From: Selenomonadaceae bacterium
GTDB taxonomy: Bacteria; Bacillota; Clostridia; Oscillospirales; CAG-272
Assembly (NCBI GenBank): GCA_963598415.1
Contig: CAVBUH010000050.1
Coordinates: 14,189 to 78,188 of the forward strand
Direction of reading: 5' to 3'
DNA: 64,000 nt
Shown: in pieces, positions 3,231 through 58,005 of the stretch
Layout: every line of letters begins with the position of its first letter
Position numbering within the stretch: the stretch's first letter is position 1
Made by a program: the position numbers and the translations under genes
Notes under the pieces: generated by a model
What the model saw: only the letters and a program-made list of their open reading frames with translations
The model's database searches: none
Told to the model about the DNA's origin: nothing

Positions 3231-3245
3231 TGCTTTTCCTTTCCG

Positions 3246-4070: not shown

Positions 4071-4267
4071 TTTTTGCTGTTCATCCTTCCGGGATATTGG
4101 TAAAACTACTATTATTATAACACATAAGGAAATAATTTTCAACCGATAACTTAAAAAAGAGTGATTTGTCTGATATTGCCGAAACTATTGACTTTTTTAT
4201 ATTGTTGTGATATGATAAAAACATATATTGCTGATTTTCTTTTATGTTAACCGCGGGGGCAATTGAA

Positions 4268-5125: not shown

Positions 5126-5138
5126 AAGGACAACTCAA

Positions 5139-6098
5139 ATGAAAATTTATATAAATAATAATACCGATCCGTATTTTAATCTTGCTTCCGAGCAGTATCT
5201 TCTTGATAACGAGACGGATGAGGTGTTCATGCTTTGGAGAAACGCCAAGGCGGTCGTTATCGGAAAAAATCAAAATGCATATGCGGAGATAAATAAACCT
5301 TTTGTTGATGAGCATGGAATTAAGGTGGTGCGCCGTCTGACGGGAGGCGGTGCCGTGTTTCATGATCTCGGAAACGTGAATTTTACCTATATAGTAGCAA
5401 GAGAGAATTGTCCGTCGCTTGATTTTGAACGCTTCAGCCGCCCTGTTATAGACGCGCTGCGGGATATCGGTGTGGAAGCGGAGCTTTCCGGAAGAAATGA
5501 TATCACTGTCGGAGGGAAAAAAATATCCGGTAATGCACAGTGTGTTTATAACAACAAGGTAATGCACCACGGAACATTGCTTTTTTCGGCCGATATGTCT
5601 CAAATGGCAGGGGCTCTTACTGTAGATGAGGAAAAGATCAGGAGCAAAGGGATTAAGAGTGTCAGAGCCAGAGTATGTAATATTTCGGAGCTTCTTCCGG
5701 ACATGGATGTAATTGCTTTCAAGGAGTATCTCGAAAACAAATTTGACGGTGATAAAAAGGAATTTTCCGACGGGCAGAAGGCGGAAATACAGCGCTTAAG
5801 GGACGAGAAGTATTCCACATGGGAGTGGAATTACGGCGTCTCAAAGGAGTACAACAGAAGGTGCAAAAAGTATTTTCCTTTCGGAACCGTTGATATCTCT
5901 CTGAATGCCGATCACGGCGAAATCAAAGAGGTGCGTTTTTTCGGAGACTATTTTGGGGTGAATGATATTTCAGTTGTTGAGCAGAGACTGATCGGGTGCC
6001 GCCTTGAAAAAGGAGAGATAGAGGAGCGTCTTTCGGACATAGAAAAATTTATCATGGGGGCGGATAGGTCTTCGATTTCCGGACTTATTTTAGGATAA
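5139..6098 (+). CDS. lplA: lipoate--protein ligase
   Basis: 319 aa with motifs RRLTGGGAVFHDLGN and GKKISGNAQ. C-terminal LplA accessory domain is present. Confidence 0.9.
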   Translation: MKIYINNNTDPYFNLASEQYLLDNETDEVFMLWRNAKAVVIGKNQNAYAEINKPFVDEHGIKVVRRLTGGGAVFHDLGNVNFTYIVARENCPSLDFERFSRPVIDALRDIGVEAELSGRNDITVGGKKISGNAQCVYNNKVMHHGTLLFSADMSQMAGALTVDEEKIRSKGIKSVRARVCNISELLPDMDVIAFKEYLENKFDGDKKEFSDGQKAEIQRLRDEKYSTWEWNYGVSKEYNRRCKKYFPFGTVDISLNADHGEIKEVRFFGDYFGVNDISVVEQRLIGCRLEKGEIEERLSDIEKFIMGADRSSISGLILG

Positions 6099-6217
6099 AA
6101 ACCGGAGGATGAAGGAATTTTCTATACCGATATTTTCCATACCGATAAGAATCTCGTAAAGACAGCTTGACAGTTTTCGCAGAGAAAATTTCTGTGCCGA
6201 CCGAACAGAGGCAGCAT

Positions 6218-6267
6218 AAAAGAGGTTAAACCGTGTTTTGAATCGGTTTAACCTCTTATTTATTTTT
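6218..6267 (+). terminator. rho-independent terminator of lplA
   Basis: 15-bp stem AAAGAGGTTAAACCG / CGGTTTAACCTCTT followed by ATTTATTTTT. Confidence 0.8.
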
Positions 6268-6420
6268 GGCAGCTCAAAAAAGTCACTGCTCAAATCCGGC
6301 TCGATCTGTTTTCCATCATTTGTCACTAAATTTCTTGTTAGATATACACTGTCTGCGGAATTTTGGTTTAGACTGACGAAAAATCTCTTTGCCGTCTATG
6401 AACATTGCATTTTTAGCGAT
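6268..6420 (+). repeat. family B interspersed repeat, copy B1 (degenerate termini)
   Basis: Aligns over its length with 8601-8761, 10402-10561 and 60595-60753 (..CGATCTGTTTTCC.TCATT.GTCAC..GACTGACGAAAAATCTCTTTGCCGTCTATGAACATTG..). Confidence 0.75.
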
Positions 6421-6603
6421 ATTCTTTATGCAATTACAAATGCTCGGAATTGCCGGATTTTGAATGAAAAAGTGAAAATACTGCCGTTTTACGGCTCCGT
6501 ATACATGCTCTCTGCAATCAGCTTAACGCTTCCGCGGTGTATCTTGAAAATTGCCGATGACAGCGAAGATGTGCAAGACGTAAGCGGCTTTTTTAGCTGG
6601 GAT

Positions 6604-7263
6604 TCATATCAGCTTTTTAAAATCCTCTGTCCCGTAAAGGATCATTTCGGCACCGAGCTGTTCCAAAAGCTCCTTCGGGCGGTATCCCCAGGAAACGCCG
6701 ACAGGGTGAAATCCAGCGTTGGTGGCGAGATGCATATCGACATCGGAGTCACCTATCAGAACGGTTTCCTCCGGCGTTCCCCCGAGAATTTTTGCTATAT
6801 AGAGGGCGCCCTCGGGAGAAGGCTTGTGCGGAAACTGACCGTTGTGACCGAGAACAAGCTCAAAGGTTCCCTCGGGAAAAAGCTTTGCACAGATTGCCTT
6901 TGTCTGGATATCCTGCTTGTTTGAGAAGACGGCAAGTCTTGCTCCCCTTTCTTTGAGATAGGCAATTCCTTCCGGGACGGCAGGATAGGGCTTTGTCGTT
7001 TTCAGATATTCCTCGGCATAATATTCCGAATATTTCGCGTATGCGCGATCAATGATCTCTTCGCTTTGGCGATATTCTTCAGGCAGACAGCCGGTAACAA
7101 ATACCCGCGCTCCGTTATTTATATTACGAAGCGTATCTTCTGCGGTAACCTCGCGCCAGCCGAAATACCGCAGCATACGGTTCATAGCCGACCTTAAATC
7201 TTCGATTGTATAGGCAAGCGTTCCGTCAAGATCGAATATAAAATATTTGTGTTTACAGTACAT
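6604..7263 (-). CDS. HAD family hydrolase (phosphoglycolate phosphatase-like)
   Basis: Motif I FDLDGTLAYT, a conserved K, and motif IV GDSDVD. 219 aa. Confidence 0.85.
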   Translation of the reverse strand: MYCKHKYFIFDLDGTLAYTIEDLRSAMNRMLRYFGWREVTAEDTLRNINNGARVFVTGCLPEEYRQSEEIIDRAYAKYSEYYAEEYLKTTKPYPAVPEGIAYLKERGARLAVFSNKQDIQTKAICAKLFPEGTFELVLGHNGQFPHKPSPEGALYIAKILGGTPEETVLIGDSDVDMHLATNAGFHPVGVSWGYRPKELLEQLGAEMILYGTEDFKKLI

Positions 7264-7284
7264 ATTGATATCTCCGTAAAATTT

Positions 7285-7866
7285 TCAGTCGGGCAATTCA
7301 TCGATCAAATCGATAAACCAATAGGGAAGATCCCTGTCGCAGTCGATAAGCCGCTTGTTTTCCAAAATCGCAATTTGCCTGAATTTCCGGGTGTTATCAA
7401 ACAATATCGCGTCATCGCATAACGGCAAAGCGGCTCTGAGATTATGATTGAGCTGAGAAAATCTTTTGATAATAAACTGATCTGCGATGCCGTGTCCGCC
7501 GTTTGCCATACGCTGATGTACCCGCTCGATGGCGACGTTTATATCGTCTATACCGATATAATAGAGGACGACCGTAAATCCGTGTTCCTTTGCGGAGTTG
7601 ATATGGCGGAGCATCGCCGCGCCGGGAAGCGTTGTTTCGATATGAAAAGATGTTCCTTCCTCAATGTATTTTGAGATAAGGTTCATTGCCGTTCTTCCGG
7701 CGTGTATATTGGCATACGGATCCTGATTTCCTCCGAATTGCTTTGCAAGCTCATCAATATTGATTCTTTTGCCGAGATTTTCACTTTGTCGGAGCACATG
7801 ATAGAGAGACGTTTTTCCGGCGCCGTTAATTCCGGCAATAACGGTAAATCTCTTTTCGGAACTCAT
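7285..7866 (-). CDS. zeta-toxin-like P-loop kinase (COG4185-type ATPase)
   Basis: Walker A GINGAGKTS. About 193 aa from ATG 7866 (MSSEKRFTVIAG..). The layout is typical of zeta toxin/AAA-like kinases. Confidence 0.75.
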   Translation of the reverse strand: MSSEKRFTVIAGINGAGKTSLYHVLRQSENLGKRINIDELAKQFGGNQDPYANIHAGRTAMNLISKYIEEGTSFHIETTLPGAAMLRHINSAKEHGFTVVLYYIGIDDINVAIERVHQRMANGGHGIADQFIIKRFSQLNHNLRAALPLCDDAILFDNTRKFRQIAILENKRLIDCDRDLPYWFIDLIDELPD

Positions 7867-8042
7867 AACAGTATTTCTCCGACGATTTTTTCCTGCGAAA
7901 GCTGCAGCTTCAGGTTTATCATTGCCCGGCAAAAGATTTTTTCCTCGCGTGAAGCGGCAGAGGAAAGCTCCGCCTCAAGTTCGGCAATGGTGATGTTCTG
8001 AAAATCTCTGTACATATCGGAGACCTTGTCTGATTGTTCCAT
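7863..8042 (-). CDS. small protein, candidate cognate antitoxin of the zeta-like kinase
   Basis: 59-aa ORF (MEQSDKVSDMYRDF..) with a GAAGGAA SD about 7 nt upstream of ATG 8042. Its TGA overlaps the kinase ATG (ATGA at 7863-7866). Confidence 0.45.
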   Translation of the reverse strand: MEQSDKVSDMYRDFQNITIAELEAELSSAASREEKIFCRAMINLKLQLSQEKIVGEILL

Positions 8043-8114
8043 GTTATATTCCTTCTTTGCTCTCAAGACGACTTTTGTGCCGGGAGGTGTATGAAAACAG
8101 TATGTATTATCGAT

Positions 8115-8452
8115 TTAAGGCAATACCGCCGGGTGCACAGCTAAGGCCTTTATTGCGATATGCTTGCCTCTATTCCGTCATACTTCACAAATTTCGTCGG
8201 CAGAGGAGTGACTCCTGCCTCCTTAATTTGTATTGTCTGACAAAAAAACCGGCGGCGCAGCGGGCTGTTGCGTTAAGCAACAAGCCCGACATTTTTCCGG
8301 TCAGGAAACCGGGAAAATGTCGAATCGGGTGTTTTTGACTGTATTTTCTTTGGATTATTATGAATTTAAATGGTCAAAATTGCGGATTTCACCCGCAAAA
8401 CCCGACTTCGTGGGGCAGTCGCACGTTAGTGCGACTGCCCCTATTGCCTAAA
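8115..8452 (+). repeat. family A repeat, copy A2, interrupted by a family C element
   Basis: Left end TTAAGGCAATACCGCCGGG and the conserved core CGTCATACTTCACAAATTTCGTCGGCAGAGGAG are present. The right terminus TATTGCC resumes only at 8442, after the C insertion. Confidence 0.8.
8261..8441 (+). repeat. family C repeat, copy C1 (inside A2)
   Basis: Near-identical over about 145 bp to the reverse complement of 45210-45354. Starts with the hairpin CGGGCTGTTGCGTTAAGCAACAAGCCCG. Confidence 0.8.
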
Positions 8453-8600
8453 AATTTTCCGCCGGACGAAACAAAATACCCATTGTTCGGACAGTGTATT
8501 ATCGGAGTTTTGTATCGTCCGGCGAAAAATATATTCAAAATCTGCTTTGATATCACAGCAGAAACGGTTTTACGGAACAGATACCGATTGAGTCATTTTA

Positions 8601-8761
8601 GGGAACCTCTAAAAAATTCACTGCCCGAATTCGGTTCGATCTGTTTTCCGTCATTCGTCACAAAAATTCTTGACAGAGGTTACACTGTCTGCGGAATTTT
8701 TGTTTAGATTGACGAAAAAATTTCTTTACCGTCTATGAACATTGAATTTTTAGAGATATCC
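8601..8761 (+). repeat. family B repeat, copy B2
   Basis: Termini GGGAACCTCTAAAAAATTCACTG / CATTGAATTTTTAGAGATATCC are inverted. The copy ends 2 nt from the prs stop codon. Confidence 0.85.
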
Positions 8762-8762
8762 T

Positions 8763-9935
8763 TTAAGTATTCTGACGCTGAACGTCTTTTTCGTTTTCCT
8801 TAACCTTTTCAAGCAGCGCCTGAATCCGCTCCGCGGGCTTTAGAAGGTGACTTATTGTTTCATCGCGGTTAAGCGTATCGACAATAAGAGCAACATATTT
8901 ACCGAGATCGACTTCTGCGTACCATTCGCGCGCCCGAAGCTCCGGAGAACGGTATATAAGGTTGGTAGTGAATATCTTGGTAAAAAGACCTTCCGAATAT
9001 GCCTTGTCCATGGAGTCAAGACCTTCACAGAAGAGTCCGAAGGTAGCAAAGGCAAAGATACGTTTTGCTCCCCGTTCCTTCAGATTGGTAGCGACGTCGA
9101 TGATTGATTGACCGGAGGATATAATGTCGTCTACAATGATTACGTCCTTGCCCTTGACGGAGCGTCCGAGATATTCGTGAGCTACGATCGGATTTTTTCC
9201 GTTTATGACCTGAGTATAGTCGCGGCGCTTATAGAACATACCGAGGTCAAGAGAAAGCATGGAGGAGTAATACATACATCTGGTCATTCCGCCCTCGTCG
9301 GGGGAAATCATCATCAGGTGGTCCTTATCAAGCTGCATGTCGGGTATTTTTTTTATAAGCGCTTTGATCATCTGATAGGTTGGCTGTACGTTGTCAAAGC
9401 CGATCAGGGGAATTGCATTCTGAATACCGATATTATGTACATCAAAGGTTACAATATTCGTAACCCCCATATTTTCAAGCTCTTTTAGGGCTACGGCGCA
9501 GTCAAGAGATTCCCTCACATGACGTTTATCCTGACGGCTCTCATAAAGCATGGGCATAATCACAGTAATGCGGCGCGCTTTTCCGGCTATGGCGTTGATA
9601 ACCCTTTTCAGGTCCGCGAAATGGTCATCGGGGCTCATCGGAAATTCGGCTCCGTACATTTTAAATTTAACGCCGTAGTTGTACATATCCGCTATGATAT
9701 ATACATCATGTCCCCGCATGGATTCATGAAGCACTGCTTTTCCCTCGCCGTTTCCGAATCTTTTGCACTCCGGAACAACGATGTAGGAGGTGCTTCCCCT
9801 GCTTCCTCTCCATTCATGCAGATAGTCGTCAACCTCCTCGACAAACTGTTCGCATCCGGGCATTCCTATTACCGACAATTCACCGTAATAAGTGTTTTCC
9901 ATCAGAAATAATGAGTCCGCTTTATGGGCAGACAA
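8763..9935 (-). CDS. prs: ribose-phosphate pyrophosphokinase (long clostridial-type form)
   Basis: Motifs ..RITVIMPMLYESRQDKR.. and the PRPP-binding loop VIIVDDIISSGQS. The start is uncertain (TTG 9935 or ATG 9902). Confidence 0.85.
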   Translation of the reverse strand: MSAHKADSLFLMENTYYGELSVIGMPGCEQFVEEVDDYLHEWRGSRGSTSYIVVPECKRFGNGEGKAVLHESMRGHDVYIIADMYNYGVKFKMYGAEFPMSPDDHFADLKRVINAIAGKARRITVIMPMLYESRQDKRHVRESLDCAVALKELENMGVTNIVTFDVHNIGIQNAIPLIGFDNVQPTYQMIKALIKKIPDMQLDKDHLMMISPDEGGMTRCMYYSSMLSLDLGMFYKRRDYTQVINGKNPIVAHEYLGRSVKGKDVIIVDDIISSGQSIIDVATNLKERGAKRIFAFATFGLFCEGLDSMDKAYSEGLFTKIFTTNLIYRSPELRAREWYAEVDLGKYVALIVDTLNRDETISHLLKPAERIQALLEKVKENEKDVQRQNT

Positions 9936-10198
9936 CTCCTTCCGTACTTACTATATAAGATACAATATACTATTATTCGATATAATTATATCATATATTT
10001 ATCGACTTATCAAGATGTGATTTCAGGTTTATTCATATTTTGACAAAAAAACAGCGACAAATTTAGGATTAACAATGCGGCGGATTTAGTGAAAAAGATA
10101 GAATCATGGATTTGCCTGTACAGAGAAGCAGTCTGAAAACAAACGGCTCCCCCTAACTGAAGACAAAGTATATTGCAGGGCTTCGTCTCATCTCTTGA

Positions 10199-10370
10199 TT
10201 AAGGCAGCAGCGTCGATTCGTGTCTTACGCCTTGACGGCAATCTGCCTCTCCGCTTCCCGTCATACTTCATAAATTTCGTCGGCAGAGGAGCTGCTCCTG
10301 TCTCCCGATATCGTCTGACCAAAATATGACTGCGCCTCTGTACCGTCAGAATCCGGCGGTATGTCCTTAG
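10199..10370 (+). repeat. family A repeat, copy A3
   Basis: TTAAGGCAGCAGCG..CGTCATACTTCATAAATTTCGTCGGCAGAGGAGCTGCTCCTG..ACCGTCAGAATCCGGCGGTATGTCCTTAG. Confidence 0.8.
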
Positions 10371-10401
10371 GAATTTTCGCCCTTGAGAATCTATTTTAAA
10401 A

Positions 10402-10561
10402 GGGCGCCTCTAAAAAACATTGCCCAAATCCGGCTCGATCTGTTTTCCGTCATTCGTCACAAAAATTCTTGACAGATGGTTACGCTGTCTGCAAAATTTT
10501 TGTTTAGACTGACGAAAAAATCTCTTTGCCGTCTATGTACACTGAATTTTTAGAGGTCCCC
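10402..10561 (+). repeat. family B repeat, copy B3
   Basis: Inverted termini GGGCGCCTCTAAAAAACATTG / CACTGAATTTTTAGAGGTCCCC, with a full-length internal match to B2 and B6. Confidence 0.85.
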
Positions 10562-10577
10562 TTTGATGAATCCGTCT

Positions 10578-12170
10578 TTACAGCGTTTCTATTTTTGCCG
10601 CTCCGTTTTTCATCAGATATTTTATGAAAATGAAAGAAACGGCAAAAACCAGAGCGTCGCAGAGCAGCAGGAACAGCGCGGTATTGAGAATTTCATCGAC
10701 GGCAAACCAAAGCACGCCGGCGGCTATGATGATTCCCCAATTGAGAAAAATCGAGAGCATAACGCTCATGCTTTGCTTTACCGCGACAGTCTCGTTGGTC
10801 CAATCAAGATTGGGAAATTTCAGATTCAGAGTAAGACCGAGTACGCCGAAGAGAAGGGAAAGTCCGCATGCCAGGACCGCGGAAAGAATTGCACTGATCG
10901 GATCCGAGGAAATAACGACGCTTAATATTGCGGAGCAGACGACTGCGGGAATAGCGGTAAGAATCATATGAAGCTTAAGCTTTGCTTTAAGAATCTGCCG
11001 GCCTCCTACCGGAAGCGACTGCAGAATCCAGAGATTTTTTCCCTCCAATGAGACCGAAGGGGCGGTAATCGTGTTTGTAGATATAAGAAAACCCAACAGT
11101 GCGCAGGCGATAAGCGGGAGTATTTCTGCCGCCCCCGGTATTTCCGCCGCTATGGCGTCGAGGCTGCTCTTTTTTATTGCGGCAAAAACAGCGCCGATGA
11201 TCATAATGATGGTACCAAGACCGCAGTTCAGCATATACACGGGACTTTTTCCGAATCTTATAAATTCTCGGCGTAAAAGCGCGCTGTCAGGGGAGCTTGT
11301 TTTCAGGACACGTTCTTTATAACGGATTTTTGCCGCGCCTTTCTTGGCCGAAGCGATTTTATGGAAGCTGAGTGACAGGATAAGATATACCGCGCCAAAA
11401 AGAACGGCGGTGATGCCGGTGAATATCAGAAAGGACAATCCGTTGCCAAGCGCTCCGCGTCCCATCTGAAAGAGAGGGTACAATGCATTTTTTATGTTTT
11501 TTCCGACGGCTTCGCTGTTTGCAATTAAAAGCTGCATCCAGGTATTGAGATTGGAATAAAGGTAAAAATATCCGCCGAGAAACCCAAGCGACAGAATTAT
11601 GCTTATAAGACTCTTGTTTCTCATTTTTGAGGAAATAAGAGCGATGAGCCATCCTAGTACACAGGTAAGGGCAAGACTCAGCAGGGGAAGAATAAGGAGG
11701 GTAAGGAGGAACAGCACGGCTTGAGAGACCGAGGGCGTGAAAAGCTTCCAGTGTGCTGCGGCGGTTGGCAGCAATATGAACGATTCGAAAAGCAGAGTTT
11801 GGATATACAAACCGAGCATACGGGCAAGCAAAATTGTACGGGAGGGAATCGGCATTGACAGCAAAAGCTCGTTATCTTTGGCGTCATACAACTGCGACTG
11901 TGTTGCGAAAACGCTTCCGATAACGCCGAACGCTGTAGCCATAAGTCCGCCGAGCGCATAATAAAGCCAACCCATTCCTGCCGATAGGAGAGGCTCGCAA
12001 ATAGAAGACATCATCATATAGAACACAAAAAACATTGCACCGAAGGCGTAAAGGAAAAGGAGCGCATATAAAAGCATGCTGAGCTTTGAACGTGGCTTTC
12101 CTCCCTTTTTGCCTCTGAAAAGGAAGGAGATCATTTCAAGAAGCTGTTTTTTTATCAGAGCCTTAGTCAT
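10578..12170 (-). CDS. ABC transporter permease (multi-pass membrane protein)
   Basis: About 530 aa and highly hydrophobic, with many predicted TM helices. ATG 12170 overlaps the ATPase stop by 8 nt (ATGACTAA). Confidence 0.7.
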   Translation of the reverse strand: MTKALIKKQLLEMISFLFRGKKGGKPRSKLSMLLYALLFLYAFGAMFFVFYMMMSSICEPLLSAGMGWLYYALGGLMATAFGVIGSVFATQSQLYDAKDNELLLSMPIPSRTILLARMLGLYIQTLLFESFILLPTAAAHWKLFTPSVSQAVLFLLTLLILPLLSLALTCVLGWLIALISSKMRNKSLISIILSLGFLGGYFYLYSNLNTWMQLLIANSEAVGKNIKNALYPLFQMGRGALGNGLSFLIFTGITAVLFGAVYLILSLSFHKIASAKKGAAKIRYKERVLKTSSPDSALLRREFIRFGKSPVYMLNCGLGTIIMIIGAVFAAIKKSSLDAIAAEIPGAAEILPLIACALLGFLISTNTITAPSVSLEGKNLWILQSLPVGGRQILKAKLKLHMILTAIPAVVCSAILSVVISSDPISAILSAVLACGLSLLFGVLGLTLNLKFPNLDWTNETVAVKQSMSVMLSIFLNWGIIIAAGVLWFAVDEILNTALFLLLCDALVFAVSFIFIKYLMKNGAAKIETL

Positions 12171-38374: not shown

Positions 38375-39160
38375 TCAGACCAATACCGTAATATTCTCCT
38401 GATCGGCAACCACTACCGACGCACCGTAACCGCAGAGAGAATTTTTGACGGTTTTAAGAGCTGCTTCCGGCGTATTATTTTCTTTACTGAGATGCGCAAG
38501 CATAAAAGCATGCGTTCCGCTTCTCGCAAGCGCGGCAGCTATCTCCGCACAGTCGTCATTGGATAGATGACCACCGTCTGAAAGTATCCGCTTTTTAAGC
38601 GCCTCGGTATACTTTCCGTTTTTCACCATATCTCTGTCATGATTGGATTCAAGCATCACCGCATCGCACCCGTAAAGCATATCGTACACTCTCTGCGTAA
38701 CATAACCGAGATCGGTGGCAACACCGACAGAATGTCCCGCCAGACTCACACGGTATCCGACGCACCGGACGCTGTCGTGAGGCGTACAAAACGCTTCTAT
38801 CTCGGCTCCGCCGTCAAGCTCAAGCCTAAATTCGTCTTCATGCATGATGAGACATTCAAAAAGCGGCGTATTCCTGCAAATACCAAGCATCGCCGCCGAT
38901 TGCTTTATCATATGGACCGGCATCCTGTATTTCTTTGCCAGCACAGGAAGAGCATGCGTATGGTCGCTGTGTTCATGCGTCACAAATACCGCCGAAATAT
39001 CCTCCATACCGACGCCGAGATTATGAAGCGCCCCTTCAATCGCTTTGGCGGTTCCGCCGGCGTCAATCAGTATCTTATTTTTTCCGGCACGTATAAAGGT
39101 GCAATTCCCCTTTGAACCGGAAAAAAGATTGATAAGTTCAATTTCTCCGCAGTCCGTCAT
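38375..39160 (-). CDS. MBL-fold metallo-hydrolase (YycJ/WalJ-like)
   Basis: Motif HEHSDH, 261 aa. The ATG overlaps the stop of the upstream gene (ATGA). Confidence 0.85.
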   Translation of the reverse strand: MTDCGEIELINLFSGSKGNCTFIRAGKNKILIDAGGTAKAIEGALHNLGVGMEDISAVFVTHEHSDHTHALPVLAKKYRMPVHMIKQSAAMLGICRNTPLFECLIMHEDEFRLELDGGAEIEAFCTPHDSVRCVGYRVSLAGHSVGVATDLGYVTQRVYDMLYGCDAVMLESNHDRDMVKNGKYTEALKKRILSDGGHLSNDDCAEIAAALARSGTHAFMLAHLSKENNTPEAALKTVKNSLCGYGASVVVADQENITVLV

Positions 39161-45210: not shown

Positions 45211-45354
45211 GGGCAGTCGGGTTTTGCGGATGAAATCCTAAATTTTGACCATTTAAATTCATAATAATCCAAAGAAAAATACAGTCAAAAACACCCGATT
45301 CGGCATTTTCCCGACCGGGAAAATGCCGGGCTTGTTGCTTAACGCAACAGCCCG
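45210..45354 (-). repeat. family C repeat, copy C2
   Basis: The reverse complement is near-identical to 8261-8425 (..GGTGTTTTTGACTGTATTTTTCTTTGGATTATTATGAATTTAAATGGTCAAAAT..). Confidence 0.8.
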
Positions 45355-45633: not shown

Positions 45634-45855
45634 TTGTACTATACTCATCCGTATTCCTCTTATAAAAGGGTGACCAATGAAAAGCAGAGTTTACTTGTTC
45701 GCAGATTGGTCCTTAAAGGGAAATCCCTTGATTCCGTTACCGATGAACAAATTGCTTTTGTTGAACAATGGATTAACAATTTGCCACAGAAAATCTTCAG
45801 ATACCGTTGCTCTGATTTTATTTTTAAAAGTGTCCTATTTGATATTGCAATTTAG
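45634..45855 (+). pseudogene. IS30-family transposase, C-terminal fragment only
   Basis: ..HPYSSYKRVTNEKQSLLVRRLVLKGKSLDSVTDEQIAFVEQWINNLPQKIFRY.. resembles the IS30 DDE C-terminus (HPY..W.RG.NEN.NGL.R...PKG......E.I..V....N..PRK.LGY). No upstream catalytic part; begins 20 nt after repeat A12. Confidence 0.6.
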
Positions 45856-45923
45856 AGCGATATTTTTCGGTATTTCGATCGTTTTCTTCGGTTGACACAC
45901 CGTAATTTATGTGATATAATTTT

Positions 45924-47822
45924 ATGATAAGCAAAATAAAGCTCGGAGGGAGTGAATTTCGCTTCATCATGAAAGATAACTTTAGAGATAAAATTGCCGA
46001 TACAGATAATTTTTGGGACATCGAAGGTATGCTCCCCGAAAAGAAGCCTTCCCACCGTTTTTCTCACGACACCTCCACGGTAGAAATAAAACTCTCCGGT
46101 GAGGATGATACCGAGCGAGGACAGATAATTCCTCTCGATAACAGACATCCCGGCGGAACGTTCACCGCTTCCGAAAAACAGCAAGAAATCGCGCTTGCCG
46201 TGGCGAGAAAAGCGCTCAGGGACGCAGAGATAAAAATCAAAACCGTTTCGGCCGCCGCGTCACAAGACAAAAAAAGCGCTTATGAAGAATGGAAACGTAC
46301 TGTCGAACAGGAAGAAAAAAGCGATCGTTTATTTTCCCGAGAAGAATACGAAAAAAGCCCTTTATATACCGATGAACCGCTCTTTGAATATTCATCTGAA
46401 CATAACCCGCTTATCAAAAAGATCACCATCAAAAAATGGCCTGCACGGTATACTTTTTACGAACGCTTTCGTGCGGACGCTTTAAAATATTATCAAAAAA
46501 ATCCCGTTCCCTGTTCTCATGTCCCGTTTTTTTCCTATACGCCGCAATACTCCCAGCTTTCCGCCGGACAGCTTGAATACTACCTATATTGGAGAAGCTT
46601 GGTAAGAAACGGAAATTATCCTACCGCTGATTATGCCTATATTCTGCTCTATATCTACGAAATCATCAATCTTCCCGACGTTATTTCTCCCACCGAAGGA
46701 GCAAGGCAGCTCTGCCTTGTATGGCGGGAATACCGAAAAAAATATCCAAAGCTGGATAAAATCATACCGGAGTGGCTCTGCGATTACTGTCTCATCGGCA
46801 AAATTGATCCTCCGTCGGAGCTTTATCGGGATTTCATTGATCCTGCGGCGGGAAGCCTGTTTTTACGGGAATACTACGCCGGATATGATTCTTCTTCGCC
46901 TTCCCCCTATGCTTCCGCTCTTTTCGCCTGCGGTTCCGATTATAATTACAGAAGCAGCAAATTTATAACGTCGGAAAACCGTGAGCTTTTTGACAAACAC
47001 ATAAGAGGCGCATTTATCTATGCCTTCGGCAAAGCAGAAAAAGAAAATCGGACAATATTCGCACCGGTCGGCAGAAGCTCCATGATGAGCGTCAGCATAA
47101 CCAGAGACGCCTTTTCAGGAGCGGTATGCGCTTACAATGTGAAGCGGAGAATAGAGCTTGAGTACCTCTCCTGCTCAAGATCGGTTGAACTGCGATTTGC
47201 TGTCACCGATATGATAAAATATGCAGAAAATAACGTCCGTTCCATGCTGGGCATACGAAGCCGGTTTCATACACCGAATCTCGCCATGCCATTGAGAAGA
47301 GCGGCTGACGAATATTTTGCTTCTTTTAAGAAGAATATGAAAAAAGCGGACGCCGAGCCGCGCCCCGAATACGAGAAGCTATATGAGGCGAGTAAAAGTG
47401 AACTTTCCCTTGATTATGCCAAGAGCCTTGAGGAAAAATCCTGGGAGACAACAAGCCTGTTGGTAAGCGATTCCGTTGATTGCGATGAAGCGAATATCCG
47501 GCAAGAGCTTTCCGCGGAAAGCAGGATAAATCCGGTGAATAAAATCTCAAATCATGTTTTTCCGCCGGAGAAGCCGCCACAGCCGTCCGGAGCTTCGGAA
47601 AACGAATTCATTAAAACTGCGCTTGAGGCGCTTATGAATCAGAATATGAACCGCTTTTCCGAAATTGCCAAAGGTCGGAATCTGCTTCCCGATACGCTCT
47701 GTGAAATCATTAACGACACGCTTTATGATGAATTTGGAGATACCGTTGTGTATTCCGAGGGAAACCGATTTGAGATCATTTCCGATTATACGGAGGATAT
47801 AAAAGAATGGATGAAAAAATAA
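45924..47822 (+). CDS. TerB-N / TerB-C domain-containing protein
   Basis: 632 aa. The central motif ..FFSYTPQYSQLSAGQLEYYLYWRSLVRNGNYPTADYAYILLYIYEIINL.. is TerB-N-like. The C-terminal ..LLPDTLCEIINDTLYDEFGDTVVYSEGNRFEIISDYTEDIKEW is TerB-C-like. The start codon is uncertain. Confidence 0.7.
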   Translation: MISKIKLGGSEFRFIMKDNFRDKIADTDNFWDIEGMLPEKKPSHRFSHDTSTVEIKLSGEDDTERGQIIPLDNRHPGGTFTASEKQQEIALAVARKALRDAEIKIKTVSAAASQDKKSAYEEWKRTVEQEEKSDRLFSREEYEKSPLYTDEPLFEYSSEHNPLIKKITIKKWPARYTFYERFRADALKYYQKNPVPCSHVPFFSYTPQYSQLSAGQLEYYLYWRSLVRNGNYPTADYAYILLYIYEIINLPDVISPTEGARQLCLVWREYRKKYPKLDKIIPEWLCDYCLIGKIDPPSELYRDFIDPAAGSLFLREYYAGYDSSSPSPYASALFACGSDYNYRSSKFITSENRELFDKHIRGAFIYAFGKAEKENRTIFAPVGRSSMMSVSITRDAFSGAVCAYNVKRRIELEYLSCSRSVELRFAVTDMIKYAENNVRSMLGIRSRFHTPNLAMPLRRAADEYFASFKKNMKKADAEPRPEYEKLYEASKSELSLDYAKSLEEKSWETTSLLVSDSVDCDEANIRQELSAESRINPVNKISNHVFPPEKPPQPSGASENEFIKTALEALMNQNMNRFSEIAKGRNLLPDTLCEIINDTLYDEFGDTVVYSEGNRFEIISDYTEDIKEWMKK

Positions 47823-49132
47823 CCGTACCGAAAAGAATTTTAGCGTCCTTAATAAGTTCTGTCTCGGCAGGAGTCGTACCGAGACTCGGAGCGCCCTATA
47901 TTGCGATCGGCAGAAAGGAAGAGATTGCTGCTCTTCTCTCTGATCTTGAGGCTGTCAGCGACGGCGGCGCGGCAATGCGCTTTATTATCGGTAATTACGG
48001 AAGCGGAAAGAGCTTCCTAATACAACTTTTGCGTGGATATGCTATCGAAAGAGGCTTCATTTGTGCCGACTGCGACCTTTCCCCCGAAAGAAGAATCTGC
48101 GGCGGAAAAGGAACCGGAATCGCTACTTATCGGGAGCTTATCAGAAATATGTCGTCCAAATCCTCTCCTGAGGGAGGCGCCTTGCAGCAAATCATTTCAA
48201 GATGGCTTTCCTCTGTTCAGGGGGAAACAGCGGCATCGGGAATACTGCCCGATTCCCCCGATTTCGGAAAAGAAGTTTCAAAACGGGTATTCTCCCTTTC
48301 AAAGGAACTCGAAAACAATGTCGGAGGATTTGATTTTGCATCGGTTATCAATGCATACTACCGCGCAACGGTTTCCGAGGATGAGGAAGCCCAAAGTCAG
48401 TGTCTGCGCTGGCTTCGCGGAGAATATACAACCAAAACAGAGGCAAAAAGCGCGCTTGCGGTAGGCTCAATCATAGATGACGATAATTGGTATGACTTTA
48501 TAAAATTATGGGCGGAGTTTGTAAGAAAAATCGGATACAAGGGATTTGTCGTATTCATCGACGAATGTGTAAACCTATACAAAATAACCAATCGTATCAG
48601 CCGCGAAAACAATTATGAAAAAATTCTGTCTATGTTTAACGATACCCTTCAGGGACGCGCTCCGGGACTTTCCGTTATTTGGGGCGGGACGCCGCAATTT
48701 CTGGAGGATACAAGGCGAGGACTCTTCAGCTATGAAGCATTGAGGTCTCGACTTATCGACAGCCGTTTTGCCAATAACGGCGAATACCGAAATTTGCTCG
48801 GTCCGGTGATACGGTTAAGAAGACTCTCGGACAATGAGCTGTTTGCACTGATTTCAAGAGTAACAAAACTACACGGTATGTATTTCGGCTGGGAACCGCG
48901 GGTAAGCGAAAATGAAATGGCTGATTTTTTGCGCGAATGTCTGAAACGCGCAGGCGCTGACATCATGATAACGCCGCGTGAAATCATCAGAGACTATATG
49001 TCGGTTCTAAATATTCTTTTTCAGAATCCCGACGCGGAGTTCACTTCCATTGTAGGAAAAAGCTTGACGCTTGAAAATGAAGATAAAAAAACCGATTCAA
49101 GCGAATTCTCTCTCGAGGACATTGAGCTGTAA
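47807..49132 (+). CDS. DUF2791 / BrxD-like P-loop ATPase
   Basis: 441 aa. Walker A GNYGSGKS (47990-48013), Walker B VVFIDE (about 48545-48565). Overlaps the upstream gene by 16 nt. Confidence 0.75.
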   Translation: MDEKITVPKRILASLISSVSAGVVPRLGAPYIAIGRKEEIAALLSDLEAVSDGGAAMRFIIGNYGSGKSFLIQLLRGYAIERGFICADCDLSPERRICGGKGTGIATYRELIRNMSSKSSPEGGALQQIISRWLSSVQGETAASGILPDSPDFGKEVSKRVFSLSKELENNVGGFDFASVINAYYRATVSEDEEAQSQCLRWLRGEYTTKTEAKSALAVGSIIDDDNWYDFIKLWAEFVRKIGYKGFVVFIDECVNLYKITNRISRENNYEKILSMFNDTLQGRAPGLSVIWGGTPQFLEDTRRGLFSYEALRSRLIDSRFANNGEYRNLLGPVIRLRRLSDNELFALISRVTKLHGMYFGWEPRVSENEMADFLRECLKRAGADIMITPREIIRDYMSVLNILFQNPDAEFTSIVGKSLTLENEDKKTDSSEFSLEDIEL

Positions 49133-49187: not shown

Positions 49188-50318
49188 ATGAAGCTTCGTT
49201 ATCTTGCATTTCTCCTTGCCGCATCGGCAATCCTGCTCCTTGCCTCCGGCGCTTCGCGGGAACGCATCTCTTTATCGCCTCATCCGTTATCAAGCAGTGA
49301 AAATACCCCCTCTCCAATTGTTCCTGACAACGATCAGCCGAATACCATGCTGTCGCTTGAAACACTGCCGCCCGAAACCACGGAAAAGCCGGAACCGGAA
49401 ATCAACACCATAACCATTTCCTTTTTGGGAGACTGTATGCTCGCTACCTATAAAGGAGGCAGAGGTGCCGGCAGCTTCAATCTTTATGCCGAAACAGCAG
49501 AGCCTTCTCACTTTTTTGCCGGCGTTTATGATATTCTTTCGTCTGACGATTTCACCGTAGCAAACTGTGAAAATGTCTTCACCGATCAAAACCTGCCCGA
49601 AACGCCAAAGGATTACTCCCCTGCTTATTGGTACAGAAGTCCGAAAAAGAACGCTGCTATTTTTACTGCCGGAAGTATTGACATCATCTCTCTTGCAAAC
49701 AACCACACAAACGATTACGGTAAAACCGGCATGGCGGATACCATCTCAGCGCTGGAAGCCGAAAATCTTATATGGGGAAACACCGGGAATCCGGTAATCA
49801 TCGAAAAATACGGCCTGAAAATTGCCATTATGATGGTAGGTATGTGGGGAGAGTACCGCACTGCGGCTTTGTCAAATCAAATAGCTGCGCTTGAGAAAGA
49901 AACCGACTATCAGATCATCTATTATCACGGAGGAACGGAAAGAAAATATAAACCCGACGAATGGAGAGTCAGAGCCTCAAGAAAGCTTGTTGACAATGGG
50001 GCCGACCTTGTGATCGGAAATCATCCTCATGTTCTACAGCCGATGGAAACCTATAACGGGGCGGACATCCTCTATTCGCTCGGAAACTTTATCTTCGGAG
50101 GATCCGTCAAGGATGATCGGTTCACGGTTATATATCAAAAAATCCTTACCGTGTGCGAGGGTGAAATCATCGCAGAGGATTATCGTTTGATCCCCGTATA
50201 TGAGTACGAGGGAGCCAAAAATATACTCTGGCAGCCTGTCCCGATGACGGAGGGAAGCGATGACTATAACTCCGTAATCGCTTTTATGCACGGAAAAGCA
50301 GAAACCCCAAGAGGTTGA
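49188..50318 (+). CDS. CapA family protein (PGA_cap metallophosphatase-like), secreted
   Basis: Signal peptide, then ..ISFLGDCML.., ..SLANNHTNDYG.., ..YHGGTE.., ..GNHPHVLQP.. motifs. Confidence 0.8.
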   Translation: MKLRYLAFLLAASAILLLASGASRERISLSPHPLSSSENTPSPIVPDNDQPNTMLSLETLPPETTEKPEPEINTITISFLGDCMLATYKGGRGAGSFNLYAETAEPSHFFAGVYDILSSDDFTVANCENVFTDQNLPETPKDYSPAYWYRSPKKNAAIFTAGSIDIISLANNHTNDYGKTGMADTISALEAENLIWGNTGNPVIIEKYGLKIAIMMVGMWGEYRTAALSNQIAALEKETDYQIIYYHGGTERKYKPDEWRVRASRKLVDNGADLVIGNHPHVLQPMETYNGADILYSLGNFIFGGSVKDDRFTVIYQKILTVCEGEIIAEDYRLIPVYEYEGAKNILWQPVPMTEGSDDYNSVIAFMHGKAETPRG

Positions 50319-54678: not shown

Positions 54679-54783
54679 ATGCTCTACACTTTATTTGAAA
54701 TAATCATCTCCGCCCTTGCCGTATACGGCGGCTATAAGCTGCTTCACGACATTTTCGGAATGAGAAGGAAACATAAAAGATGA
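54679..54783 (+). CDS. possible 34-aa membrane peptide overlapping the recD2 start
   Basis: MLYTLFEIIISALAVYGGYKLLHDIFGMRRKHKR: one TM helix plus a basic tail. Its TGA overlaps the recD2 ATG (ATGA at 54780-54783). No clear SD. Confidence 0.3.
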   Translation: MLYTLFEIIISALAVYGGYKLLHDIFGMRRKHKR

Positions 54784-57011
54784 ATAACGGAACCATGCCG
54801 CCTGCCGGCAGAGAAGATCTTCTTGAAGTCGAGGGCGTTATCGAGCATATTGTCTACAAAAATGATACAAACGGTTACACCGTATGCGAGCTTGCCGCAG
54901 CAAATGATGAACTTATCACTCTTGTCGGCATCATGCCGTTTCTTGCAGAGGGGGAAAGTATAAAAGCACTCGGCAAGTGGGAGCTTCATATGAGCTTCGG
55001 GCGGCAGTTCAAAATTGAATATTACGAAAAACAGCTTCCTGCAAGCGAAGCCTCCATGTTTAAATATCTTTCCTCCGGCGCAATCAAAGGCATAGGTCCC
55101 GTCACCGCCAAGCGAATCATGGAACGTTTCGGCACCGACGCCTTTGAGGTTATAGAGCATAACCCGGAATGGCTTGCCGATGTAGAGGGCATCACCCTAA
55201 AAAAAGCCCGAAAAATATCAGAACGCTTTAAAGAGACTTTCGGAGTACGCTCCGTAATGATGTTCTGCCGCGACTTTTTCGGACCGGCAACAGCCATTAA
55301 GGTATACAAGCAATGGGGAGGTGCCGCCGTAGACGTCATAAAGGCAAACCCCTATGCTCTGTGCGAGGCAATTGACGGGATCGGGTTTGAAACCGCCGAT
55401 CACATAGCTGAGAAGCTTGGTACGGACAAGACTTCTCCCGATCGAATCAAAGCCGGCATTCTCTATTTTATCTCCTATAATGCCGTTCAAAACGGACATA
55501 CCTTCATTCCGGCGGACAAGCTTCTTCCTGCCGCAGCAAGACTTCTTTCTGCCGGCGAGGAAAAAACGGCGGCGGGAATCCGTTCTCTTCTCAGCGAAGG
55601 AAAGCTTGTATCGGTAAAATTCAACGGCAGAGAAGTGATTTATCTCAAAGATTATTTTGAAGCCGAACGGTATTCCGCCGCAAAGCTTGATCAGCTTGAC
55701 CGGCTTTGCGAAAGAATATCTCTGAGCGACGCCGACCGTTTTATCACACAGCTTGAGTCCGAAATCGGAATAACCTATGCCGCACTCCAGAAAAAAGCTA
55801 TTATCGATTCCATTAACAGCGGTGTAATGGTGCTCACGGGAGGTCCCGGAACCGGAAAAACCACCGTAATTCGCGCCGTAATTACCGTTTTCGAGAGAAT
55901 GGGACTGAAAATCGTGCTTGCCGCTCCTACGGGACGCGCTGCCAAACGCATGTCCGAGGCGACTTCAAGAGAAGCAAAAACCATACATCGTCTTCTTGAA
56001 ATGGACTATTCAAACGGAAATAAGCCGACGTTTCGACGCGATGAAAACGATATGCTCGATGAGGACGCGATCATTATCGACGAGGCTTCGATGGTGGATA
56101 CCCTGCTTATGGTTTCGCTCCTCAAAGCAATAAAGCCGGGAGCAAGACTTATGCTGATCGGTGACGCCGACCAGCTTCCGTCTGTCGGAGCGGGATACGT
56201 TCTGAACGATATTATAGAAAGCGGAAGGTTCAGTTCCGTCTGTCTGAAGGAAATATTCCGTCAGGCGCAGACAAGTCTGATTGTCAGAAATGCGCACGCA
56301 ATTAACAACGGCGAATATCCCGATCTCACCGTCAAAAACGGGGACTTCTTTTTCCTCAGACGGGAAGATGAGAGAAGCATTGCACCGACAGTAACGGAGC
56401 TGATTTCCTCCCGTCTCCCGAAAACCTACGGAGAGGATATCAAAAAAAGCATTCAGGTGATAACGCCGTCACATAAAGGAGCGGCGGGAACCGATAATTT
56501 AAACGCTTTGCTTCAGAACGCGCTGAATCCTCCCGAACCTTTCAAAGCGGAAAAAAAGGTACGGGATGTCGTTTTCCGGGCCGGAGATAAAATTATGCAA
56601 ACCAAAAATAACTATGATATTCCATGGAATCGAGGAGGCAGAGAAGGCTCCGGAATCTTCAACGGAGATATCGGTAAAATTATTTCGGTTGATAATCACT
56701 CCGAATCCGTCACAATTGACTTCGACGGAAGAATTGCCGAATACGACTTTGCACAGCTCGATGAAATCGAACACGCCTACGCGATCACCATACATAAAAG
56801 TCAGGGAAGCGAGTACCCCGTAATCATTATACCTTTGTTCAGCTTTTCCCCCCGCCTTCTTACCCGCAATCTGCTGTATACTGCCGTCACAAGAGCCAAA
56901 GATATGGTCATTCTGGTCGGCTCCGAAAAAGTGATAAAAAGTATGGTAGATAATAACCGTTTGGTACAAAGATATACCGGTCTCTCTTTCCTTCTTAAAT
57001 CTTATGAATGA
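54780..57011 (+). CDS. recD2: SF1B ATP-dependent RecD-like DNA helicase
   Basis: 743 aa. Walker A GGPGTGKTT, DEASMV, motif III GDADQLPSVG, and C-terminal ..AITIHKSQGSEY... Confidence 0.9.
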   Translation: MNNGTMPPAGREDLLEVEGVIEHIVYKNDTNGYTVCELAAANDELITLVGIMPFLAEGESIKALGKWELHMSFGRQFKIEYYEKQLPASEASMFKYLSSGAIKGIGPVTAKRIMERFGTDAFEVIEHNPEWLADVEGITLKKARKISERFKETFGVRSVMMFCRDFFGPATAIKVYKQWGGAAVDVIKANPYALCEAIDGIGFETADHIAEKLGTDKTSPDRIKAGILYFISYNAVQNGHTFIPADKLLPAAARLLSAGEEKTAAGIRSLLSEGKLVSVKFNGREVIYLKDYFEAERYSAAKLDQLDRLCERISLSDADRFITQLESEIGITYAALQKKAIIDSINSGVMVLTGGPGTGKTTVIRAVITVFERMGLKIVLAAPTGRAAKRMSEATSREAKTIHRLLEMDYSNGNKPTFRRDENDMLDEDAIIIDEASMVDTLLMVSLLKAIKPGARLMLIGDADQLPSVGAGYVLNDIIESGRFSSVCLKEIFRQAQTSLIVRNAHAINNGEYPDLTVKNGDFFFLRREDERSIAPTVTELISSRLPKTYGEDIKKSIQVITPSHKGAAGTDNLNALLQNALNPPEPFKAEKKVRDVVFRAGDKIMQTKNNYDIPWNRGGREGSGIFNGDIGKIISVDNHSESVTIDFDGRIAEYDFAQLDEIEHAYAITIHKSQGSEYPVIIIPLFSFSPRLLTRNLLYTAVTRAKDMVILVGSEKVIKSMVDNNRLVQRYTGLSFLLKSYE

Positions 57012-57243: not shown

Positions 57244-58005
57244 ATGAAAAGTAAATCTCTGAAAAGGTTCTTTACTGCTGCCTGCGATATCTTTTTCCCA
57301 CCGAAGTGCATCGGTTGCGGAGAAACAATAGATAACCGCAGACAAAGCCGTGTTCTCTGTCCTGTCTGCCGCCAAAAATTTCTGTCGGAGATCTCAAAAC
57401 CGTGTCCGGTATGCGGAAAAGAGTATTCGTTCTGCATATGTAAGCCGAAGGGTTTTCTCCCTGATGGCTTTGCCTATTCGCTTCCTTACGATAAAGAGAG
57501 TGGAATCACAAGAAAAATGATTCTATGCTGTAAAAACCGTCGTGTCTGCGCGGTTTTTAAAGAAATTGCCGCGGCGATGCTTGAAACAGCAAAAATCAAT
57601 CATATACTGACGGAAAATTCTCTGATCACCTATGTTCCCCGCGCGCCTGAAAAAGTTGTCAGAAAAGGTCTTGACCAAGCCGAAGAACTTGCAAAAGAAT
57701 TTTCGAAGGTTTCGGGAATTCAATGTGTCGAACTGATCCGTCACAGAAGATTTTCCTATGAGCAAAAAAATCTCGGAGAAGCAATGAGGAGCACAAACGC
57801 AGAAAAAAATTTCCGGCTGTCCGACCGTAAAAATCTAATCGCAGGGAAAAACATAATCCTGATCGACGATATCGTAACAACCGGGGCTACGGTTAACGCC
57901 TGTACCTGCCTGCTTAAAGAAGCAGGAGCGGAAAGTGTTTTTTGTCTGAGCGCTTCAAAAAATATCAAAACACCGTCTTATCATATAAAGGAGGAGAAAC
58001 CATGA
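57244..58005 (+). CDS. comFC: ComF family protein (ComFC, PRT-fold with N-terminal zinc ribbon)
   Basis: CIGC..CPVC..CPVC..C Cys pairs and a PRPP-binding-type loop ILIDDIVTTGAT. Confidence 0.85.
   Translation: MKSKSLKRFFTAACDIFFPPKCIGCGETIDNRRQSRVLCPVCRQKFLSEISKPCPVCGKEYSFCICKPKGFLPDGFAYSLPYDKESGITRKMILCCKNRRVCAVFKEIAAAMLETAKINHILTENSLITYVPRAPEKVVRKGLDQAEELAKEFSKVSGIQCVELIRHRRFSYEQKNLGEAMRSTNAEKNFRLSDRKNLIAGKNIILIDDIVTTGATVNACTCLLKEAGAESVFCLSASKNIKTPSYHIKEEKP

Follow-up and report, generated by a model that had tools for sequence, protein, structure and literature searches.

Shango proteins SngA and SngB encoded without a neighbouring helicase gene in a lineage of gut Clostridia

We report on two overlapping genes in a 64-kb stretch of DNA from a clostridial genome (contig CAVBUH010000050.1 of a Selenomonadaceae bacterium; the whole stretch is referred to as the window). 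The proteins of this locus are SngA and SngB of the anti-phage system Shango, and the gene for the third Shango protein, the helicase SngC, does not follow them. We consider it probable that the pair belongs to a derived, helicase-less Shango lineage that was gained once long ago, has been vertically inherited and is under purifying selection. Shango (SngABC) is a three-gene system validated in Escherichia coli (bioRxiv 10.1101/2022.05.11.491447; Millman et al. 2022), with anti-phage activity also reported in Pseudomonas aeruginosa (PMC10250203; Johnson et al. 2023), so that a preliminary description of this DNA, which knew of no experimental characterisation of such genes, was outdated on this point. 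A literature search found no mechanistic study of Shango and nothing on a two-gene TerB-N/DUF2791 form.

Identity and organisation of the gene pair

The first open reading frame (ORF) of the pair matches the Pfam models TerB_N (4.8e-18, residues 177-296) and TerB_C (5.4e-10, residues 483-627), and the PADLOC model of SngA (9.2e-45, residues 122-630). The second matches BrxC_BrxD/DUF2791 over its full length (4.9e-158) and also AAA_16; among the PADLOC models it matches SngB over its full length (9.3e-170) and BrxD second and more weakly (6.7e-49), and with the NCBIfam BrxD model (NF033438) it reaches 167.8 bits, under the cutoff of 350. The residues that are invariant throughout the SngB family, G62-x-Y-G-S-G-K-S69 and D252-E253, are retained in the window. 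The preliminary description had read from the letters alone two ORFs overlapping by 16 nt, a TerB-N and a TerB-C block, and a DUF2791/BrxD-type ATPase with Walker A and B motifs. The coordinates were verified, both motifs are present, and all three domain calls were borne out by significant Pfam matches. SngA most likely starts at 45969 rather than at 45924, which gives a protein of 617 residues, because the promoter ends at 45920, the ATG at 45924 falls within a promoter-proximal motif and homologues start at the position equivalent to Met16. In all, 702 homologues of SngA were found.

The locus can be set against three groups of known systems that share parts with it. The 2012 work of Anantharaman, Iyer and Aravind, as cited in PMC10250203 and bioRxiv 10.1101/2022.05.11.491447, was the first to tie TerB_N and TerB_C to gene neighbourhoods of DNA processing and defence. 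SngA shares the 'TerB' label of the Ter protein TerB, Bunzi and Dionysus through these accessory domains, but a Pfam scan (E <= 0.01) returned TerB_N and TerB_C alone and did not detect the TerB core domain (PF05099); neither SngA nor SngB has a transmembrane segment, there is no pore-forming partner, and no ter genes (TerZ/A/C/D/E) lie near the pair. With type-2 BREX (bacteriophage exclusion; Pgl) the locus has in common that SngB shares the Pfam family PF10923 with BrxD and matches BrxD models. It differs in that SngB falls below the BrxD cutoff, has a TerB_N/TerB_C protein as its partner and lacks the helicase half, and no PADLOC or Pfam match to the BREX genes PglX, PglZ, BrxC, PglW and BrxHI was found among the large ORFs of the window. 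With Shango itself the locus shares the SngA and SngB profile matches, the order of A before B and the sigma-A promoter of the clostridial three-gene loci. It is distinguished from Shango by the lack of the SngC DEAD/DEAH helicase, by seven diagnostic substitutions in SngB and by a chromosomal, fixed and vertical mode of residence, as opposed to residence on a plasmid or in a defence island.

The promoter of the pair (Table 1) matches the consensus at 12/12 hexamer positions and carries a TG extension. Promoters with at least 11 of 12 matches lie 34-65 nt 5' of SngA in 13/15 helicase-less and 72/74 helicase-containing loci; in the latter the match is 12/12 in 53 of the 74 and 11/12 in 19 more. 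Across 86 unique promoter sequences neither the two hexamers (-35 and -10) nor the TG vary, and a single T about 8 nt past the -10 hexamer is likewise invariant; the promoter is retained despite species-to-species change of the upstream genes. An operator within the promoter spacer was considered and rejected, since the spacer sequence is not conserved. That a perfect or near-perfect promoter is kept in almost every clostridial Shango locus studied is a feature that calls for an explanation in a defence operon. Downstream of the promoter, an upstream alignment of nine species showed an initial-transcribed motif, TTTATGATAAGCAA, to be common to the window and to loci L128 and L001 (L numbers are our own locus and contig labels). 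The sngA/sngB overlap, ATGGATGAAAAAATAA, and the GGAGGA Shine-Dalgarno sequence that precedes it are kept in L128, L001, L002, L003, L087, L129, L132, L133 and L135. Because the promoter and the overlap junction are both conserved across the clade, the heritable cassette consists of promoter, sngA and sngB, with coupled translation.

A helicase-less lineage at one chromosomal site

In relatives the gene after SngB encodes a helicase of about 745 residues, which matches PADLOC SngC (9.9e-243), the Pfam models DEAD and Helicase_C, and the BrxHI model (2.3e-126). SngC directly follows SngB in 69/80 genome loci and, where seen, is at most one inserted gene away; this agrees with the gene neighbourhood of TerB-N/TerB-C protein, DUF2791 ATPase and SF2 (superfamily 2) helicase that the preliminary description had cited. 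Its further statement that no helicase or nuclease follows the pair also stands, as a tblastn search with five SngC proteins (E <= 10) found no SngC in the 64-kb window (best E = 0.36) and the PADLOC SngC model gave no match among the window's large ORFs. The idea of a helicase remnant in the window was rejected on the same tblastn search. Where the contig allows, no SngC lies within 8-10 kb of SngB in L001, L002, L004, L084-L088 and L128-L135; our search for SngC thus took in the whole window and, in relatives, flanks of up to 8-10 kb. The rules of PADLOC and DefenseFinder need all three Shango genes, and the window locus would therefore not be called.

Some three-gene loci carry an unrelated gene between SngB and SngC. 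In L024, L045 and L068 this encodes a GH39-like glycoside hydrolase of about 440 residues (in L024 at about 11.4-12.7 kb), and in L066 and L074 a protein of about 200 residues; the SngB-SngC junction therefore tolerates insertions. Lone helicase-less SngAB loci were also seen inside helicase-containing clades, namely L012 (where valS comes after SngB), L041, L052 and L080 (= L107). Their nested positions imply several independent losses of the helicase that left SngA and SngB intact.

Relatives of the window were drawn from a genome scan, a metagenome scan and context look-ups of SngA homologues. Intact helicase-less SngAB is present in at least 17 related species, most of them at a site directly before TauE(-)-uppP-ftsK, in which TauE is on the opposite strand. 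In L001-L003, L084-L087 and L129-L133 there is no SngC and SngA-SngB lies directly upstream of this trio, with SngB 70-81% identical to that of the window and SngA down to 38%. The gene order persists to 65-70% identity in SngB and 38% in SngA, and species that share the site, the orientation, the promoter and the junction have uppP identities of 57-81%. In the closest other species (L128, SngB 89%) the gene order of the window is preserved on both sides of the pair: a Metallophos gene, rbfA, DHH, DUF6062, efp, a gene for a 113-residue acidic protein, SngA, SngB and CapA. Four further helicase-less loci (L004, L088, L134 and L135) lie among other housekeeping genes. In a neighbour-joining tree of 120 SngB sequences all of these helicase-less loci form one group, whose sister is a helicase-containing group. 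The smallest split with all uppP-linked SngB was free of helicase-containing members in 100/100 bootstraps, and the smallest split with all 17 helicase-less loci in 72/100. The SngB tree is broadly congruent with a tree of uppP and ftsK.

Relatives were also sought by uppP alone, which avoids selection on SngAB, and five new contigs were inspected. All five (5/5) lack SngAB beside TauE-uppP-ftsK, and no remnant of the pair was found in these relatives (best E = 0.3). Two of them (L136 and L137) have CapA-TauE-uppP-ftsK as in the window and are nested among carriers in the uppP and ftsK tree, in which L138 and L140 are outgroups. The pair is therefore dispensable and accessory: SngAB is a long-resident accessory module and not a core gene, and the idea of a core gene was rejected. 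Universal conservation in core synteny, which the preliminary description had named as an outcome that would speak against its interpretation, is thus not what we see. The simplest history is one old gain at the site, followed by vertical descent and at least one or two clean losses.

The preliminary description had taken the pair for an acquired islet. A recent mobile-element insertion between efp and capA/uppP would be in keeping with the transposase remnant upstream of the pair (45634-45855), with same-species contigs that differ to the left of 45314 (L081) or, with plasmid-like genes, to the right of 49219 (L082), and with the absence of the pair from some relatives. We regard such an event as very improbable, because the same site, orientation, promoter and junction recur in species whose uppP is 57-81% identical and whose SngA is just 38-49% identical, the SngB tree broadly follows the host tree, the gene order in L128 is identical on both sides, and there are no defence neighbours. 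Moreover, the guanine-plus-cytosine content of the pair is like that of its flanks, and no integrase, pair-bounding repeats or tRNA association were seen. The IS30 fragment amounts to a minor local scar.

The preliminary description left open whether the pair is a minimal two-component variant or a decayed system, and the conservation of the two genes favours the former. SngA and SngB ORFs are intact in every relative examined, despite saturated synonymous sites. The nonsynonymous divergence (dN) of SngB between the window and L001-L003 is 0.147-0.176, within the range of housekeeping genes (ftsK 0.141-0.243, uppP 0.13-0.22, recD2 0.134). In pairs among relatives for which the synonymous divergence (dS) is measurable, dN/dS is 0.12-0.15 for SngB and 0.32 for SngA. 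A non-functional remnant of a three-gene system, heading for loss, would account for the absent helicase, for the IS30 fragment and rearrangement breakpoints just upstream, and for the scattered helicase-less singletons in helicase-containing clades. It is scarcely credible given that at least 17 species have both genes unbroken, that SngB evolves at the pace of housekeeping genes and that the catalytic motifs, the promoter and the coupling junction are conserved.

The three-gene form behaves differently from the helicase-less pair. Three-gene loci have flanks in common only if they are very closely related. Of 53 pairs whose SngB is at least 85% identical, 16 have under 10% of their flanks in common, and shared flanks are wholly gone at about 87-89% SngB identity. 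Relatives of SngB (at most 49% identity) are encoded on 697 plasmid records, of which 542 are predicted to be conjugative, in hosts from Paenibacillus to Aeromonas and haloarchaea, and a DEAD/DEAH helicase is typically annotated beside the ATPase. In a Clostridium plasmid, for example, the order is relaxase, SngA (TerB_N protein), SngB and helicase, with IS110 nearby. No match to SngB was found in phage genomes. In type-2 BREX, BrxD and BrxHI have been described as a 'tightly linked dyad', and BrxD has been classed as an ORC/Cdc6-type AAA+ protein and proposed to load or activate its helicase (PMC12839542). Since the helicase stands beside the ATPase in archaea, Proteobacteria and Paenibacillus, and since BrxD and BrxHI form such a dyad, the ancestral state has three genes, and the helicase-less state is derived.

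A serious rival, which we nonetheless consider unlikely, is a split three-gene Shango in which SngC or another Lhr/Ski2-type helicase is encoded elsewhere in the genome and acts in trans. BrxD-family ATPases are thought to load or activate a partner helicase (PMC12839542), and the DNA inspected here is the 64 kb and the short flanks given above. SngB also retains 76-88% of the columns that are invariant in the helicase form, as would be expected with a helicase interface still in use: of 184 columns with an invariance of at least 97% across 93 helicase-containing sequences, 162 are unchanged in nine helicase-less members, and 133/175 are unchanged in all 14, Walker A and B included. However, SngC is separated from SngB by no more than one gene wherever it is seen, the ATPase-helicase dyad is tightly linked in the literature (PMC12839542), and the window holds no SngC-like sequence. 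SngB of the helicase-less clade has, moreover, consistently changed at sites that are invariant in the helicase form (L16I, R63K/N, which adjoins Walker A, and S220G), and C98, F238, N262 and H356, which are rare in the presence of a helicase, are invariant in it. On this sequence evidence, sites 16, 63, 98, 220, 238, 262 and 356 of SngB are candidates for a released helicase contact.

Flanking genes and local scars

The coordinates of the pair, its control elements and its annotated neighbours are collected in Table 1.

Table 1. Features of the sngA-sngB locus and its surroundings in the window
Feature	Position	Strand	Remarks
IS30-like (rve-domain) transposase, C-terminal remnant	45634-45855	+	73 aa; matches L082 rve ORF, E = 4e-08
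sigma-A promoter	45892-45920	+	TTGACA 45892-45897, 17-nt spacer, TG 45912-45913, TATAAT 45915-45920
5' leader	45921-45968	+	motif TTTATGATAAGCAA; GGAGGG Shine-Dalgarno 45945-45950; contains ATG 45924
ORF1 (sngA)	45924-47822	+	632-aa open frame
sngA, corrected (most likely start)	45969-47822	+	617 aa from Met16; TerB_N/TerB_C protein
Translational-coupling junction	47792-47822	+	GGAGGA Shine-Dalgarno 47792-47797 within the sngA end; 16-nt overlap 47807-47822
ORF2 (sngB)	47807-49132	+	441 aa; DUF2791/BrxD-family AAA+ ATPase
SngB Walker A, GNYGSGKS	47990-48013	+	aa 62-69
SngB Walker B, VVFIDE	48548-48565	+	aa 248-253
CapA-like (PGA_cap)	49188-50318	+	Pfam 4.5e-49; next gene after sngB
RecD2/YrrC	54780-57011		SF1 (superfamily 1) housekeeping helicase; OB, HHH and SH3 domains

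The neighbours of the pair are efp, DUF6062, the CapA-like gene, TauE, uppP and ftsK. Both the CapA-like gene that the preliminary description had placed next to the pair and the IS30 transposase remnant that it had placed upstream were confirmed, and the same-species contig L081 has the remnant too. The 55-nt gap 3' of sngB showed no terminator. CapA stands between SngB and TauE in crown-group species only (L001, L002 and L128), and it is present as well in the SngAB-less L136 and L137; it is therefore an independent insertion and not a partner of the pair. The simplest account is that CapA was inserted in the crown group, after the gain of SngAB.

PADLOC detected no other defence system among 22 neighbouring ORFs; its matches there were generic helicase, phosphoribosyltransferase and phosphoesterase similarities only. 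The sole helicase in the window is the housekeeping RecD2/YrrC, which was rejected as the missing helicase because it is an SF1 protein with its own OB, HHH and SH3 domains and is not SngC-like. The 253-residue protein encoded 3' of recD2 (57244-58005, + strand) matches the PADLOC models ShosT (5.8e-14) and PsyrT (8.3e-12), and its counterpart in L129 has a weak phosphoribosyltransferase match in Pfam; it is probably a ComFC-type housekeeping protein and not a defence protein. The product of 38375-39160 (- strand) has a metallo-beta-lactamase fold and a sub-threshold similarity to the anti-Pycsar protein Apyc1 (23 bits against a cutoff of 50), and it is conserved at the same position in L128; the protein is probably an ordinary host hydrolase.

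Two contigs of the same species depart from the window close to the pair. L081 is 99.8% identical to the right of 45314 and diverges exactly there, within a hairpin with a 14-bp stem (45299-45330; feature region 45299-45354); to the left it has a BspA-type leucine-rich-repeat surface protein in place of efp. The breakpoint suggests a repeat-mediated rearrangement, because 41 nt at this point (L081 1776-1816) match positions 8261-8301 on the opposite strand of the window at 95%. L082 departs at window position 49219, 31 nt inside capA, and its positions 2847-11427 are plasmid-like, with a RepB-type replication protein, an rve/IS30-like ORF, IS110-like fragments, a Fic-like ORF and a Kiwa KwaB-like gene. 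This junction means either that an element has entered capA in that strain or that the assembly is chimeric.

Possible functions of SngAB without SngC

Predicted structures offer some guidance to what the two proteins may do. The AlphaFold2 model of SngA (mean predicted local distance difference test, pLDDT, 83.7) has a disordered N-terminus, long helices, TerB_N, a central alpha/beta region, a Ser/Pro-rich low-complexity linker and a C-terminal TerB_C, which is modelled as helix-helix-helix-strand-strand and is winged-helix-like. Local Foldseek matches of about 70 residues were to the winged helix of LysR regulators and of ScpB (E >= 0.29). Residues 1-60 (45969-46150) contain a motif, D-x-FWD-x-x-x-LP...FS-x-DT, in which W16 is invariant in 76 diverse homologues and which looks like a docking peptide for a partner. 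For SngB the nearest Foldseek matches were ring-forming AAA+ ATPases, namely HslU (6e-5), RdrA (2e-4) and ORC/Cdc6 (0.007-0.05), with template-modelling (TM) scores of at most 0.29 for a model with a pLDDT of 68.8. SngB has intact Walker A and B motifs like RADAR RdrA and ORC/Cdc6 proteins, but it is set apart from them by these low TM scores, by a large helical insertion between Walker A and Walker B, and by having no RdrB-like deaminase partner. A sequence search of the PDB returned nothing for SngB and, for SngA, one spurious match to ORC6 (E = 0.14).

We propose the following course of events and mode of action. The ancestral three-gene form would have been mobile, with an Lhr/Ski2-like SngC encoded directly after SngB. 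A cassette without sngC would have settled once just upstream of TauE(-)-uppP-ftsK, in a gut clostridial lineage related to 'Firmicutes bacterium CAG:272', to be inherited vertically under purifying selection and occasionally lost. The locus is predicted to form one transcription unit of sigma-A promoter, sngA and sngB, with translation coupled by the 16-nt overlap, and SngA and SngB would be synthesised at a fixed ratio and assemble into a cytoplasmic complex. In this complex SngB may be an ATP-driven oligomerising switch, as ORC/Cdc6-type loaders are, and SngA a sensor or adaptor whose winged-helix-like TerB_C and N-terminal peptide motif would contact DNA or partner proteins. In canonical Shango, the task of the complex would be to load SngC onto target DNA or to activate it there. 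In the lineage of the window the SngAB complex itself would have been selected, acting alone by binding or occluding foreign or replicating DNA in an ATP-dependent way; alternatively, it may engage a helicase or translocase whose gene is not a neighbour. We offer only tentatively the stronger claim that SngA and SngB are self-sufficient without a dedicated helicase, as a TerB_N/TerB_C adaptor and an ORC/Cdc6-like switch in long-term chromosomal residence. Such a self-sufficient SngAB might serve in immunity or DNA surveillance as a complex without an effector, or might make use of host DNA motors.

A retained role in defence or DNA surveillance appears more likely than a housekeeping role, because the pair is dispensable in some sister species. 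Exaptation of SngAB from defence to a host function, for example chromosome or envelope surveillance tied to uppP-ftsK, with loss of its immune role, would fit its fixed position beside TauE-uppP-ftsK over family-level divergence, a conservation of SngB equal to or above that of ftsK and uppP, the lack of mobile or defence neighbours and the strong conserved promoter. We think such domestication improbable. The pair is traceless in all five relatives found by uppP alone, two of them nested among carriers, and is thus dispensable in the manner of accessory immunity genes. Furthermore, SngB and uppP are separated by TauE on the opposite strand, which places SngAB outside the uppP-ftsK operon, and the basal helicase-less loci L134, L135 and L004 have other contexts. 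The mobile three-gene form has the same promoter, and the promoter is therefore not an adaptation to a new role.

Several points weigh against our preferred reading of a derived, vertically inherited lineage that retains a Shango-like role. Strict monophyly of the helicase-less clade is weakly supported, with a bootstrap value of about 32% in the simple neighbour-joining analysis. The scope of the SngC search is such that a helicase elsewhere in the genome is possible. For all pairs with the window (SngA, SngB, CapA and recD2) dS is saturated and the NG86 method gives no value, so that the argument for selection rests on the comparison of dN with housekeeping genes and on pairs among relatives. 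The anti-phage activity on record is that of three-gene systems from E. coli and P. aeruginosa, and a fixed position with housekeeping-like conservation is atypical for defence and fits a domesticated role too. On the structural side, the whole-protein fold of SngA has no significant Foldseek match in the PDB or among viral structures, and the confidence of the SngB model is moderate. Finally, neither SngA nor SngB has a recognisable effector domain (nuclease, toxin or pore), and helicase-independent defence therefore has no identified executing activity.

Looking forward, Shango is a validated system, and the helicase-less lineage provides a natural dissection of it, in the form of a two-protein system to reconstitute. 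Should the genome encode a helicase at another place, what we describe would be no more than an unusual split operon. If instead SngA and SngB are self-sufficient, this would overturn the view of the DUF2791/BrxD ATPase as only half of an ATPase-helicase dyad, a view that goes with the assumption that BrxD of type-2 BREX works only together with its adjacent helicase, and would define a natural minimal Shango for mechanistic work. The three-gene detection rules now in use may undercount defence-derived modules in gut Clostridia, and the lineage argues that SngAB is the functional core of Shango, with the helicase an exchangeable or dispensable accessory.

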